From NCBI RefSeq assembly GCF_013122565.1, contig NZ_CP053258.1: DNA of 64,000 nucleotides; one strand, written 5' to 3'. The notes below the pieces were generated by a model. The model searched no databases. It was not told where the DNA came from and was given only the letters and a program-made list of their open reading frames with translations. The position numbers and the translations under genes were made by a program. Source of the DNA: Escherichia coli. Lineage in GTDB: Bacteria > Pseudomonadota > Gammaproteobacteria > Enterobacterales > Enterobacteriaceae. Shown here in pieces: positions 59,195 through 64,000 of the stretch (position 1 is the stretch's first letter; each line of letters opens with the position of its first letter).

Positions 59195-60250
59195 TTAACG
59201 CAGGCTATTATAGTCATCAACCATTTCGTTGTACTCGCGTAACGCGCGTGGAAATGAGTCTTCGACCATCCAGCTTGTGTTTGCATCCTGAAGATGCTCT
59301 TTATCCCAGTCAGAGTACGGGACTTTATCTCTGACGCGGCGAACATATTTTTTAGTCTCGAGTTGATACTGGTCTGCCGAATTAATGAACGAGAAATTCA
59401 TACCGCCTTTATCCGCTTCTTTGGCCTGCGCTACCAGCGTTTCCAGTTCAGAGACTTTCTTCATTGCCGCATCAACATCAAACTTCTCTTGCGATATCAG
59501 GTTATTAATTTGTTTCGCTGAAATCATGACTGCCAGAGAGTAGTAGTGGAATGTTTTCCCTTCTCTTTCTTCAATATTTTTCAGTTCCGCAAGCTGACGC
59601 TTATCGTTAATTTCCTGAATCGCCGCATGATAAGATTCTGCTACAGGTTCAAAGGCTTCCAGATTTTTTAAGAATGTCTGGTGCAGCGTTTTCCCTTTCG
59701 CAAACGCATCGTCTTTATAATTTTCCTGGGTGTAATATTTATCCATTTCGTTAATGGTATTACCCAACGCCACGGCAGCATCGATATAACTCACCGCCAC
59801 GCCATCAATTGGTTGCAGCGCAGGCGTTAACGCCACGACTCTTTTTATTCCTTTTTGACACTCAGAGAGATTGGATTCACTAATGCCGTAAATGCCATAA
59901 ACAAGGCTCTCTCTACCCGTTGGCCCCTGTTTAAAATCTTTCAGCCAGTCAGCGTAACGCGCCAGACTGTTCTGTACAGGAATCTGTAACTTGTTGTAGC
60001 ACTTGATATAGACATCCATTTTTTCGTCGAAAACCGCTTGTTCATCGACCACCGGTTGCGCAGGCGTTTCAGGTTTAACTTCTGCTTTTGCAACGGGAGC
60101 TTCAGTAGGTTTCGCTTCAGGAGCTGGTGCGGCAGGTTGACTATTGGCAGGCGGGGGCGTTTCTGTTTCGGCTTTTTTATCATCACAACCCGTGAGACCG
60201 AGGGACATGATGGCGACTATAATAGCGGAAGATAATAAATTCCTTTTCAT
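59195..60250 (-). CDS. yiiG: DUF3829-family lipoprotein YiiG
   Basis: 351 aa; lipobox MSLGLTGC; Pro/Ala-rich linker; convergent with frvR as in K-12. Confidence 0.9.
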   Translation of the reverse strand: MKRNLLSSAIIVAIMSLGLTGCDDKKAETETPPPANSQPAAPAPEAKPTEAPVAKAEVKPETPAQPVVDEQAVFDEKMDVYIKCYNKLQIPVQNSLARYADWLKDFKQGPTGRESLVYGIYGISESNLSECQKGIKRVVALTPALQPIDGVAVSYIDAAVALGNTINEMDKYYTQENYKDDAFAKGKTLHQTFLKNLEAFEPVAESYHAAIQEINDKRQLAELKNIEEREGKTFHYYSLAVMISAKQINNLISQEKFDVDAAMKKVSELETLVAQAKEADKGGMNFSFINSADQYQLETKKYVRRVRDKVPYSDWDKEHLQDANTSWMVEDSFPRALREYNEMVDDYNSLR

Positions 60251-60444
60251 TTAATTGCCTTATAAATATATAGATAAGAGAGATAATATTTTAAATGAAA
60301 AAATGATCCGTCACTATACACATCTTGCTTATAAACAAACCGAAATTATTCATACCCCAAATAATTCCTGCGACTTAAAATATAAATCGCAGGAAGCTAT
60401 TTTAATTACCCGCTCTACCAGTGGCGCAGGATATAAACTCTCAC

Positions 60445-62751
60445 CTACATTCCATAACGTTCAGAAATAGCAGCATGTTTCTCTTCATTCGCCCCGGCTT
60501 CTTTGGCAAGACGCCACCAGCACAACGGATGTTCCCAGTCAGCGGTCAATTCGTGCAAGGTCTTATCGATATCACCTTTAGAAACTGAACGCGGCGCACT
60601 GATAACAAAGTAGAATGCGGGAAGTGGCTGCGCATCTTCACCCTGATGACTGTCCGTTAACGTATAGTCGTCATTACTGTTGCTCCAGTAGTACCAGTTT
60701 CGTTCGCGGAGCGCCTCACGGAAGGCATTAAACTGTTCTTCACCAGGCATGACACCTTCGCAGAACCAGGACTCGCCGTATTCGGTCGGAATAATGGTTT
60801 GCAGGCAGGCATAAAGTGGCGTGAAATTCTTCTGCTCTTCCTCATCCTCTGGTCGGGAGTTCAACATTTCTGCATCGAATACCACAACTTCATCAACATG
60901 TTGCGGATAATCGGTCCGGTAAGTTGGCTCAATGATCCTTGCTGTTACCGGCCCAATACGTTGAGCATAGTAATAGCGGTATTCATAATTTTCCCGGAAG
61001 CGGATGTTTAACAACCCCCATTTTTCGTCAATAAAACCTTCGCCTTCCGTGAGTTCGATTTCCAGTTCAGCAGCAATAGCACGAACCAAATCCCATTGTT
61101 GCAGGATGCTGGCGGTCGCCATGATATCCCACTGGAGATTTCGAATATCTTCTTCACGGCTAATCATCAGTTGCTGCAATTGCTGTAAATAATCCAGTTG
61201 TCGATCCCAGGCTTCCTGTTTTTGTGCTGCCCAGGAGCACATGCGATAAACGCCAACCCACTCACGCCCTTTTTCGTGTTGCAGCAACTGTTGCCCAATC
61301 GACTCCAGTTCACTCCAGTCTTCCTGTTGGTTGATCACTCGCGCGCGGAACCACAAGGCCATATGTAGCAGCCCCGCCTGTTCATACTGCTTCGCCAGAT
61401 GCTCGATAGTTTGCAAATCGTCACGGTGGAGCAAGAGATCCAACAGATCGAAGCAAAGTCCATTATCTTCCTGAAGATGGCTTTCAACGTAGCGTTGCAG
61501 GAGTTCAATCGATTCATCAATCGCATTGCAGGCGTTTAACGCATTGACCAGCTTGCCCAGCAATTCCGCATCATCAGGCGTGTTCAGATAAGCGCGGCGG
61601 AATGTTTCTACGTCTTTTTCTGGATCTGGCTGCGTTTCTTCATCGCTATTTTCAGGTACTTCTACAACCGGACGAGCCAGCAACTCTGCTTCTTTGGCGG
61701 CTATTTTTTCACTCAGTTCGAGAAATTCGCGATCGACGCCCAGTAACGCGCGTAATTTTGGCATGTGTCGCTGGGCCAGTTTCATCGCTATTTTGGCAAC
61801 CCAGACGGATTCACGCTCCAGCGCCAGGGTAATTTGCAGTTTCGCCAGATCAACCACTTTGCGGTGCGCCCCGGCCTGTGAACGTTGCTCCAGCATTTTC
61901 TGGATGATGCGCGCCAGTTGCCAGTTGTTTCTTTGTGGATGACGGGGAAGTAACACAGTAATGATTTTCAGCCATGACCCCCATGAATGCGGAGTCAGAT
62001 CGGACCAACGCGGTAATTCCTCCCAGACTTCTTCGTCCTGCCCGCATAACGCCATGATGTACAGTTTTTTTAGGTGATTACTAATGCGGTCGCGGCCCCA
62101 GTAATCATTGCTTTCTGTCAGCTCATCAATCAGTTTGCGTGCTTCATCATAACGCTGAAGTTCAATCAGAATATCGGCGCGAGTATAAAGTAATGGATCA
62201 AAATCATCTTCCCCGGCGGCTTTAACCGCGTCGATTTGCCGATCCAGATAAGCCAGTGCCTCCTCTGTTCTTTTGGAATCTATCAGTGCACTGGCATATT
62301 CAGTGGACAAACACTGAAAACAGCTCCAGGTTGCATCAATGCGCGCGATGGTTTCTTCACACACCGCCATGCGTTCATTCGCCCAGCCAGGTGCATCAAT
62401 ATTTTCGTAGCAGGCGGATAAATCCTGGGTAACGCAGATAGATTGCGGGCAATCTTTCGCCTCTTCCCGGTGCGCTTTTTCAAACAGCGCCACCACGTCT
62501 GGCAGTACTTTTTCGCCTTCTTCGCGGTTAGTGAGACGATGGCGCATTTCCCAGTGACCAATAAAAATCTCCAGCCACGGATTTTTTGCCACCTGGGTAA
62601 GCGCTTTTACTTCAGGTAATAGCGAATCGCACTTTTCCATTTGCAGGTGCATAACGCCTTCCGAATAATCATCGATAAGTTGCGGAATATACTCCTGCCC
62701 GGCATCGCGCAACTCCTTAGTATATTTATGGTACCAATCCCATATATCCAT
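60445..62751 (-). CDS. large (768 aa) protein of unknown function, operon partner of the Hsp90 paralog
   Basis: Complete ORF MDIWDWYHKYTKELRDAGQEYIPQLIDDYSEGV...; start is 2 nt from the stop of the upstream Hsp90-like gene; acidic, no signal peptide or TM segment, no motif I recognise. Confidence 0.7.
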   Translation of the reverse strand: MDIWDWYHKYTKELRDAGQEYIPQLIDDYSEGVMHLQMEKCDSLLPEVKALTQVAKNPWLEIFIGHWEMRHRLTNREEGEKVLPDVVALFEKAHREEAKDCPQSICVTQDLSACYENIDAPGWANERMAVCEETIARIDATWSCFQCLSTEYASALIDSKRTEEALAYLDRQIDAVKAAGEDDFDPLLYTRADILIELQRYDEARKLIDELTESNDYWGRDRISNHLKKLYIMALCGQDEEVWEELPRWSDLTPHSWGSWLKIITVLLPRHPQRNNWQLARIIQKMLEQRSQAGAHRKVVDLAKLQITLALERESVWVAKIAMKLAQRHMPKLRALLGVDREFLELSEKIAAKEAELLARPVVEVPENSDEETQPDPEKDVETFRRAYLNTPDDAELLGKLVNALNACNAIDESIELLQRYVESHLQEDNGLCFDLLDLLLHRDDLQTIEHLAKQYEQAGLLHMALWFRARVINQQEDWSELESIGQQLLQHEKGREWVGVYRMCSWAAQKQEAWDRQLDYLQQLQQLMISREEDIRNLQWDIMATASILQQWDLVRAIAAELEIELTEGEGFIDEKWGLLNIRFRENYEYRYYYAQRIGPVTARIIEPTYRTDYPQHVDEVVVFDAEMLNSRPEDEEEQKNFTPLYACLQTIIPTEYGESWFCEGVMPGEEQFNAFREALRERNWYYWSNSNDDYTLTDSHQGEDAQPLPAFYFVISAPRSVSKGDIDKTLHELTADWEHPLCWWRLAKEAGANEEKHAAISERYGM

Positions 62752-62752
62752 T

Positions 62753-64000
62753 TTATTTTCCTTGATTAATTAAAACGGGAATAACCTGAGTAAAATCTTC
62801 CAGTGCCTGGTGTAAATCCCACTGCTGTTCTTTATTGCCGCTGGAGCACAAAATCACTTTCAGCGATTTTAATAACCGTAATGCTGCCGCTGGCTGTTGA
62901 TGGTGTTGTAAGGCAGTCACCAGTTGCATGACACAGGGGTTATTAAGATTGATATACAGACTTGAGGTTTTCGTTTTTTGGATTTGCGAGGTAAATTGCC
63001 GCGCCAGCATTAACGCTGCGGTACTGATGCGTTTATCTGCGTCATCCTGTTCGAGAATTTGTTTTAATTCTGCTTCCCGGTCTGGCGTGACCACTAACGG
63101 CAAAACGGCGGGTTCGAAGCGGGAGATAATTAATTGCTCGCCATCGCAAAGATGCTCTTCCAGATAAGCCACTTGCTCTTCGGGTAATTCCGCCAGGCTG
63201 AACAATTGCTCATTGCCCGTTTGCGTACCGACTTCGATAATCCGGCAATGATATAACAGCGCCCAACGGCGTAAAAATGGCACCACCGCATAGCGATCGC
63301 CACGGGCTACAGGCCGTTGCAGAATATGGAACAACATCTCTTCAAAACCGCCGTCGCGGCTTAACAGAATATGAATGCTGTTATTAACGCGTAAATCCTT
63401 CGCCAACAGTGCGCCTTTTGACGTTGGCACCTGTAAGCGATCTTTGAGCAAATCAAACAGACGGTCATCACACAATGCCGCGCCCAGCAACGCTTCGTTG
63501 TGGCGCATTAATACACGCCGCCAGATTTCTGGCTGATTTTGTGCGAGATCGGACAAACCAGAAATCAGCGCCTCTTTTAACGCCTCCTGCACCGCAACCC
63601 AGGTTTCATCCCGCTGGAGATCTTCCCTGCTCGCCGTCGGCGTCAGTTTCGATGACTCAATCACGCCACCAATAAATCCGGCCCAGGGCGGTAACAACTC
63701 ACGCGCTTCGTCATCCAGTAACATACCGCGCAAAAACAACGACAGGTTGCGGTTATCGCTGGTGCCGTAGGTTGCGCCATCCTGAATCCATAAAATCCCG
63801 ACCGCGTCGCTCATCCCCGCTGGCACCACCGGAATGGTGCAAATCGGTTCGAAGGAGGATTCAAACTGTGCGGCAAAGGCGAGATTTTTACGCTGCACCA
63901 GCGCGCGGTGCATGGTCACGCCTTCGGGGGCAACTTCACGCCACGGTGGTTGAAGTTTATTTACCGGCTCGCTGGCATCGCCGACATAAACCGGTTCGTG
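62753..64000 (-). CDS. Hsp90/HtpG-family paralog, middle and C-terminal domains only (5' part beyond window end)
   Basis: Frame open to the window edge (27 stop-free codons upstream of the track GTG at 63919). Matches HtpG middle domain (LPPWAGFIGGVIESSKLTPTASREDLQ vs HtpG [21 protein letters not shown]) and C-terminal motif (YINLNNPCVMQLV vs IFELNPDHVLVKR). Confidence 0.75.
   Translation of the reverse strand, partial: HEPVYVGDASEPVNKLQPPWREVAPEGVTMHRALVQRKNLAFAAQFESSFEPICTIPVVPAGMSDAVGILWIQDGATYGTSDNRNLSLFLRGMLLDDEARELLPPWAGFIGGVIESSKLTPTASREDLQRDETWVAVQEALKEALISGLSDLAQNQPEIWRRVLMRHNEALLGAALCDDRLFDLLKDRLQVPTSKGALLAKDLRVNNSIHILLSRDGGFEEMLFHILQRPVARGDRYAVVPFLRRWALLYHCRIIEVGTQTGNEQLFSLAELPEEQVAYLEEHLCDGEQLIISRFEPAVLPLVVTPDREAELKQILEQDDADKRISTAALMLARQFTSQIQKTKTSSLYINLNNPCVMQLVTALQHHQQPAAALRLLKSLKVILCSSGNKEQQWDLHQALEDFTQVIPVLINQGK

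Follow-up and report, generated by a model that had tools for sequence, protein, structure and literature searches.

A conserved gene pair of Escherichia coli encoding a divergent Hsp90-like ATPase and a tetratricopeptide repeat protein, possibly a two-component chaperone system

To our knowledge, bacterial Hsp90 is usually described as working without co-chaperones. Tetratricopeptide repeats (TPR) are a fold used by the co-chaperones of eukaryotic Hsp90, and Hsp33 is a redox-regulated, zinc-centre chaperone whose four zinc-binding cysteines form a switch that responds to oxidative stress. Apart from E. coli HtpG and mitochondrial TRAP1 ('group A'), bacteria have divergent HtpG lineages, which Chen et al. 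reported in 2006 as groups B and C (PMC1525184); gamma-proteobacteria occur in groups A and C (PMC1525184). Non-canonical bacterial lineages ('hsp90B/C') were explicitly set aside in the functional study of Press et al. in 2013 (PMC3708813). Divergent bacterial Hsp90 paralogs are, then, already known, and both genes considered here are present in RefSeq under generic annotations. Here we describe a two-gene operon at one end of a 64,000 nt stretch of an E. coli chromosome (contig NZ_CP053258.1; the window), in which a gene for a divergent Hsp90-like protein of 611 amino acids (aa) is followed by a gene for a 768 aa TPR protein (the partner), a pairing that is conserved far beyond E. coli. Some database records of the Hsp90-like protein carry the names 'Hsp90xo' or 'molecular chaperone HtpG', but a literature search, with many subscription-journal papers outside its reach, found no study of the pair, of the function of 'Hsp90xo', or of a bacterial Hsp90 with a TPR partner.

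This part of the window carries frvABXR and yiiG, followed by two open reading frames (ORFs) on the minus strand. The partner ORF, named 'tetratricopeptide repeat protein' in RefSeq, occupies positions 60445–62751, and the 3' two-thirds of the Hsp90-like gene lies at 62753–64000 (minus strand), where residues 197–611 and the stop codon (415 sense codons) are open to the window edge. Both are where an earlier reading of the window, made from the letters alone (the sequence-only reading), had placed them. It had also put 2 nt between the genes; they are indeed almost in contact, although the gap is 1 nt, since the sequence of the junction (62749–62763, minus strand) shows the TAA stop of the Hsp90-like gene at 62753–62755 and the ATG of the partner at 62749–62751. 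A Shine-Dalgarno motif for the partner, AAGGA, is found at 62759–62763, within the Hsp90-like gene, and a layout of this kind, with a 1 nt gap and an internal ribosome-binding site, is typical of translational coupling. Abutting or overlapping junctions are also present in Cronobacter and in three distantly related metagenomic pairs. The N-terminal ATPase domain (residues 1–196) is encoded by the roughly 588 bases past the window edge, and the full gene was taken from E. coli UTME-7 (locus L001:14554–16389; RefSeq name 'ATP-binding protein'), which is 99.9% identical to the window over a 3.8 kb query and 100% identical over its last 301 bases. The gene order in UTME-7 is yiiG, partner (768 aa), Hsp90-like (611 aa) and fdhD.

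The Hsp90-like protein retains an intact ATPase core. Near the N-terminus of the full-length UTME-7 protein, outside the window, are the Bergerat motifs ELVQNGHDA, DTGAGL and GMFGLGFLSAF, and when the clade is aligned together with HtpG, residues E38, N42, D45, D78, G80, G82, G114 and G117 do not vary. Its catalytic Glu, Mg-binding Asn, adenine-binding Asp and glycine motifs all align with those of HtpG and TRAP1, and the catalytic Arg of the middle domain (R321), equally invariant, sits in an 'SRE' loop where LTPTASREDLQ aligns with PLNLSRELLQ of TRAP1 and with HtpG. The sequence-only reading had supposed an ATPase domain beyond the window, and the full gene, which is not truncated, supplies it. 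In these features, and in size (about 610–625 aa), the protein resembles HtpG and TRAP1, but its overall identity to HtpG is only 23%, and its score against the HtpG model NF003555 is 198.7 bits, below the cut-off of 371, in agreement with the earlier view that it is far diverged from HtpG. HtpG also stands alone between recR and adk and is a core gene in E. coli, whereas the Hsp90-like gene is encoded with a partner and is accessory there.

Pfam detects HATPase_c_3 and HSP90 domains in the protein. Its best NCBIfam model is NF010683 (PRK14083, 'HSP90 family protein'), another divergent bacterial Hsp90 paralog, and the match is near end to end (protein residues 13–571 against model positions 8–562 of 604) but reaches 288.9 bits where the cut-off is 455. 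Five other TPR-linked Hsp90-like homologs score 249–277 bits on the same model and fall below both NCBIfam cut-offs. Since all the TPR-linked proteins tested lie between 249 and 289 bits, under 455, they form a separate clade beside the NF010683 members, and the E. coli protein belongs to the Hsp90 superfamily but lies outside both curated equivalogs, NF003555 and NF010683. The NF010683/PRK14083 proteins are probably the non-A bacterial HtpG lineages, that is, groups B and C or 'hsp90B/C'. We infer that the Hsp90-like protein belongs to Chen's group C, an assignment that follows from the presence of gamma-proteobacteria in groups A and C and not from a tree.

Searches of the PDB gave TRAP1 and HtpG as the best matches to the single sequence, over the N-terminal and middle domains (E 7.5e-30), and a nine-member clade profile matched HtpG residues 7–418 (E 1.6e-52). 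Past about residue 400, the last 200 or so residues gave no sequence match to any Hsp90 in the PDB, and the C-terminal third has no detectable sequence similarity to the dimerisation domain of HtpG; the region does align with NF010683, as far as model position 562. Weak matches at the level of the GHKL fold were also seen to a restriction enzyme model, NF050001, and a topoisomerase II family, phrog_543, and these raise the alternative of a non-chaperone GHKL clamp comparable to MutL, GyrB and MORC, whose substrates would be nucleic acid or chromatin-like and whose scaffold would be the TPR protein. However, all the non-Hsp90 GHKL matches are limited to the first 190 or so residues, the Hsp90 similarity continues through the middle domain and includes the Hsp90-specific catalytic Arg loop, and Pfam detects no DNA-binding domain in either protein. 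Because the Hsp90-specific middle domain is conserved, we regard such a clamp as very improbable.

The sequence-only reading could name no domain in the partner, but Pfam finds TPR_19 at residues 156–215 (E 6.8e-5), and across 46 partner homologs it finds TPR families and nothing else. An AlphaFold2 model built from an alignment of the same number of homologs (predicted local distance difference test score 91.6) divides the protein into TPR-like helical repeats (residues 1–360), a low-confidence linker (361–376), a second helical-repeat array (377–562) and an alpha/beta domain specific to the partner family (579–768). With the whole model as query, the top Foldseek matches are generic TPR superhelices only. 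The C-terminal alpha/beta domain matched no named fold, and a PDB sequence search with it returned nothing below E 0.1. The partner has no match in PADLOC or PHROGs and nothing significant in NCBIfam, and domain searches found no effector domain, whether nuclease, TIR, protease, pore or of another kind. The alpha/beta domain carries an acidic loop, P-E-D-E-E-E, at residues 634–639 (window positions around 60835–60852, minus strand), which is acidic in most of 216 partner homologs and recalls the acidic peptides bound by TPR domains.

The most conserved part of the partner is its N-terminal, helical 160 residues. Conservation was counted over the 216 homologs, which have a median identity of 30% to the query: H66, C101, P102 and D119 are present in all 216, D110 and C144 in 215, and C106 and C147 in 214. 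The resulting pattern (H66, C101-P-Q-x2-C106, D110, D119 and C144-x2-C147) looks like a metal-binding or redox-active site, although this assignment is putative. The four near-invariant cysteines, in two close pairs (C-x4-C and C-x2-C), are reminiscent of the zinc centre of Hsp33; on the other hand, no Hsp33 homology was found in any search, the partner fold is a helical repeat, and its metal site is putative.

The association of the two genes extends well beyond the enterobacteria. In Cronobacter, Xanthomonas, Pseudomonas aeruginosa, a Rhodocyclaceae metagenome-assembled genome (MAG) and Parabeggiatoa, the partner homolog is directly preceded, on its own strand, by an Hsp90-like gene, and the flanks are unrelated in each case. 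A survey of one genome per species (100,044 species), using two conserved peptide patterns, found 124 relatives of the partner, of which 80 were kept, and tblastn placed an Hsp90-like gene immediately upstream and on the same strand in 76 of these 80 loci. Three of the four remaining loci are cut off upstream of the partner, so the pair is present in 76 of the 77 that could be assessed. Among the paired loci are those of Enterobacterales, numerous species of Xanthomonas and Stenotrophomonas, Lysobacter, Pseudomonas, Betaproteobacteria, Holophaga foetida and a Chloroflexi MAG. When 1.84 billion representative sequences were searched with a profile, 486 partner clusters were obtained at E <= 1e-30, and nearly all of the best 150 were full-length (716–801 aa), with a few shorter fragments. 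Three of the most distant relatives listed, all metagenomic and 27–30% identical to the partner, each had an abutting or overlapping Hsp90-like gene upstream. The two genes are thus conserved neighbours well outside E. coli.

No third gene is conserved across genera among the 80 loci searched, and synteny is seen only at the level of the genus. It is present in many of the species representatives of Xanthomonas and Stenotrophomonas that carry the pair. In roughly 19–26 of the Xanthomonas species loci, a gene for a 451–476 aa AraC-family (HTH_18) regulator precedes the pair on the same strand, and is a candidate for its controller; a divergent gene for an Old Yellow Enzyme-type oxidoreductase follows the pair in this genus.

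The two proteins have also diverged together. Their pairwise distances correlate with r = 0.97 over 1326 pairs, the partner evolving about 1.4 times faster than the Hsp90-like protein. Between two E. coli carriers the Hsp90-like gene has a ratio of nonsynonymous to synonymous substitution rates (dN/dS) of 0.024 and the partner one of 0.076; between E. coli and Salmonella the ratios are 0.035 and 0.059, respectively. Both genes are under strong purifying selection, and values of 0.02–0.08 rule out a decaying or functionless pair. Operon coupling, conserved adjacency and the correlation of distances give indirect support for an interaction between the two proteins.

The intact Hsp90 ATPase core, the tight operon, the near-universal adjacency, the co-divergence, the purifying selection, the synteny in Xanthomonas and Stenotrophomonas, the non-mobile setting (described below) and the lack of a recognisable effector are together best accounted for by an Hsp90 machine of two dedicated components, in which the TPR protein would be the obligate cofactor, a reading to which we give roughly even chances. 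The 611 aa protein would be an active, ATP-driven clamp of the Hsp90 type, of a lineage apart from the housekeeping HtpG, and the 768 aa protein its obligate, co-translated cofactor. The two TPR-like solenoids may dock onto the chaperone, hold substrate segments, or both, while the invariant His/Cys4/Asp cluster could bind a metal, probably zinc, or serve as a redox-sensitive switch, and the family-specific C-terminal domain may add a further contact with client or chaperone. The clients would be a limited group of cytoplasmic proteins, which the complex would fold, assemble or hold.

The nearest working model is the eukaryotic Hsp90 with its TPR co-chaperones (Hop/Sti1, PP5, FKBP51/52 and CHIP), where an Hsp90 ATPase is likewise tied to a TPR-repeat protein. 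The partner differs from co-chaperones of the Hop/PP5 type: it is far larger, has two solenoids as well as a conserved region rich in Cys, and ends in a novel domain. Any resemblance would be convergent, analogous rather than homologous. A stronger form of this proposal, in which the pair would be the first prokaryotic Hsp90 with an obligate, dedicated TPR cofactor, an independently evolved counterpart of the eukaryotic systems whose Cys4/His/Asp centre couples chaperone action to metal or redox state, is put forward only tentatively, as we think it somewhat less probable than not.

Several observations weigh against a dedicated chaperone and cofactor. The Hsp90-like proteins have no conserved acidic tail of the MEEVD type, the peptide that a TPR carboxylate clamp binds in the Hop/PP5 systems, their C-termini being short, non-acidic and variable (...LINQGK, ...LLAR, ...LLGQ, ...LTEK), so any docking of TPR repeats must differ from the eukaryotic mode. 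The partner shows no sequence similarity to solved co-chaperones, and phmmer against all PDB chains found nothing better than E 0.11. A promoter scan upstream of the Hsp90-like gene detected no convincing sigma-70 or heat-shock promoter, and it is the lack of the latter that counts here. Lastly, at three loci (inspection being of the partner locus only) full-length partner homologs of 25–33% identity have no adjacent Hsp90-like gene: Thorsellia anophelis, which is the fourth of the unpaired loci in the species survey, one metagenomic contig, and Nonomuraea gerenzanensis. It follows that a partner gene can occur apart from the chaperone gene. The neighbourhoods of two of these homologs were noted: in Thorsellia, a NAMPT-like gene lies upstream of the partner with about 850 bp of AT-rich DNA between them, and in Nonomuraea the locus includes a gene for a 255 aa unknown protein after dapF-like and miaA-like genes.

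The unlinked homologs would fit a different arrangement, in which the end product that carries the function is the partner itself, as a sensor or enzyme dependent on metal or redox state, and the Hsp90 paralog serves only to fold, metallate or activate this private client. The constellation of H66, C101, C106, D110, D119, C144 and C147 looks less like a docking scaffold than like an active or metal site, and the partner, in spite of its faster evolution, has kept a fixed length of 730–800 aa and a unique C-terminal domain. Against this, none of the partner domains was recognised as a catalytic fold or as a member of an enzyme family, and the stoichiometric, translationally coupled layout of the operon suits a stable complex equally well. 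We consider the private-client arrangement unlikely, though the invariant Cys, His and Asp residues lend it some weight.

If the pair is instead the two-component chaperone machine favoured here, it could reveal how Hsp90 clamps gain specificity factors. A strictly conserved, co-evolving operon for an Hsp90 paralog and a TPR protein also provides a concrete genetic handle on the non-canonical Hsp90 lineages, and since natural E. coli strains either carry or lack the pair at one and the same locus, the system could be studied in E. coli itself.

The distribution of the pair in E. coli was examined by megablast with window positions 60200–64000. The whole stretch was found in 254 of 5426 complete genomes (4.7%), always on the chromosome and always between fdhD and yiiG (window 59195–60250). 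In K-12, fdhD adjoins yiiG, as the sequence-only reading had stated, and the spacer between them is 152 bp. When the fdhD–yiiG site was surveyed over 5424 genomes, 3638 were contiguous as in K-12 and about 249 were split in two matches, a figure that agrees with the 254 carriers. Many other genomes have a shortened yiiG, and IS1 is present at the site in one listed genome. The site is essentially biallelic, either empty or occupied by the pair, and this rules out a multi-cargo hotspot. The yiiG gene itself is shortened or divergent in many non-carriers, for example ST131.

The GC content of the pair (0.45–0.55) agrees with that of the host. Between UTME-7 and SMS-3-5, the synonymous divergence (dS) of the pair is 0.19–0.24 and that of the flanking yiiG and fdhD is 0.16–0.17; the latter values are high for E. 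coli core genes, and suggest deeply split haplotypes of which the locus as a whole is part. On a Salmonella Infantis contig the pair is again beside fdhD, and the proteins are 92% (Hsp90-like) and 76% (partner) identical to those of E. coli. The host-like GC, the flank-like dS and the fdhD locus shared with Salmonella speak against a recent horizontal insertion, which we therefore reject, and for the same reasons the pair looks like an old chromosomal resident that has been lost from most E. coli lineages. The sequence-only reading had taken it for inserted accessory DNA, which is only half right: the pair is present in some strains and absent from others, but it does not look like a recent arrival.

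Its accessory status in E. coli, together with the compact two-gene form and patchy spread across phyla, invites comparison with anti-phage and other conflict systems, in which both GHKL ATPases and TPR sensors are known: the TPR protein would be the sensor of a component from a phage or another foreign source, and a conformational response driven by the GHKL ATPase would block infection or kill the cell. Similarity of the N-terminal domain to known defence proteins is weak. The match to TmtA in PADLOC-DB v2.0.0 (E 5.2e-6) covers residues 13–137, that to type II restriction enzymes of the BbrUII/HgiDII type (E 5.7e-10) scores far below the cut-off, and what is shared is the generic Bergerat ATP-binding fold within the first 130–190 or so residues, while the rest of the protein is Hsp90-like and the partner matches no PADLOC model. 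A phage family of unknown function, phrog_32952, matches residues 127–415 of the Hsp90-like protein (E 3.5e-19; mostly window 63344–64000 and beyond its edge), so some phages encode Hsp90-like proteins of a similar general type.

The genomic setting gives such a role little encouragement. Only three plasmid records match the pair, two of them of chromosome-like size (847 kb and 11.85 Mb) and the third a 29 kb record of Xanthomonas vasicola, and no genuine phage record does, the single 'phage' match being a Salmonella chromosomal contig. The listed flanks consist of housekeeping genes that differ by genus, and no restriction-modification or abortive infection (Abi) genes were seen in them. The biallelic site in E. 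coli is not that of a defence hotspot, no effector domain was found, and the pair is under strong purifying selection, with no hypervariable sensor region. The wide occurrence of the pair in Xanthomonas and Stenotrophomonas, with its conserved synteny, fits a physiological role better than sporadic immunity. The evidence thus leans away from the phage-defence idea that the sequence-only reading had entertained, and we judge a conflict system to be quite improbable; were the pair an immune module after all, it would represent a new class of ATPase in bacterial defence. The broader description given by that reading, a specialised chaperone or GHKL-ATPase module unlike any characterised system, is a fair one. 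No characterised pathway or defence system was matched in PADLOC, NCBIfam, Pfam, PHROGs, the PDB or the literature, and none of the three findings it had named beforehand as fatal (membership of a known pathway, a pairing not conserved elsewhere, or a truncated or ATPase-less Hsp90-like gene) was made.

Comparison with K-12 defines the edges of the pair-specific DNA. The left boundary lies at 60397–60408, where similarity to the K-12 spacer ends after CTATTTTAATTA; the spacer matches the yiiG side of the carrier allele through a terminator-like hairpin and up to TATTTTAATTA (window position about 60408). The right boundary is at the fdhD stop codon, about 900 bases past the window edge (L001:16694–16706), and bears the similar sequence ATTTAATTA. 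A short AT-rich microhomology (TATTTTAATTA / ATTTAATTA) is therefore present at both edges, and could have mediated deletion or insertion. As the right edge coincides with the stop codon, FdhD ends in ...RLIHN in carriers and in ...RLSN in K-12. A second terminator hairpin for fdhD, unlike the first, is found in carriers at L001:16667–16693.

The hairpin on the yiiG side lies downstream of the partner gene on the minus strand and was detected in a terminator scan, with a terminator-like score, as TTCCTGCGA...TCGCAGGAA, extendable to 13 pairs. The sequence-only reading had seen it, but its position is 60365–60395 (L001 12196–12166) and not 60363–60393. Alignment of the K-12 fdhD–yiiG spacer shows its counterpart directly after fdhD in K-12, so the hairpin belongs to the ancestral sequence of E. 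coli.

Upstream of the Hsp90-like gene, the sole conserved segment in the alignment adjoins the start codon. It holds a possible upstream ORF of five codons, ATG GAT TAT GAG TAT TGA (MDYEY*), at L001:16393–16410 (minus strand; about 590–610 bases past the window edge), which stops 3 nt ahead of the start codon of the Hsp90-like gene. Besides E. coli, the segment is kept in E. whittamii and in Salmonella (MDYEC*), and in part in Superficieibacter. It may encode a leader peptide, or may be no more than a region conserved for ribosome binding.

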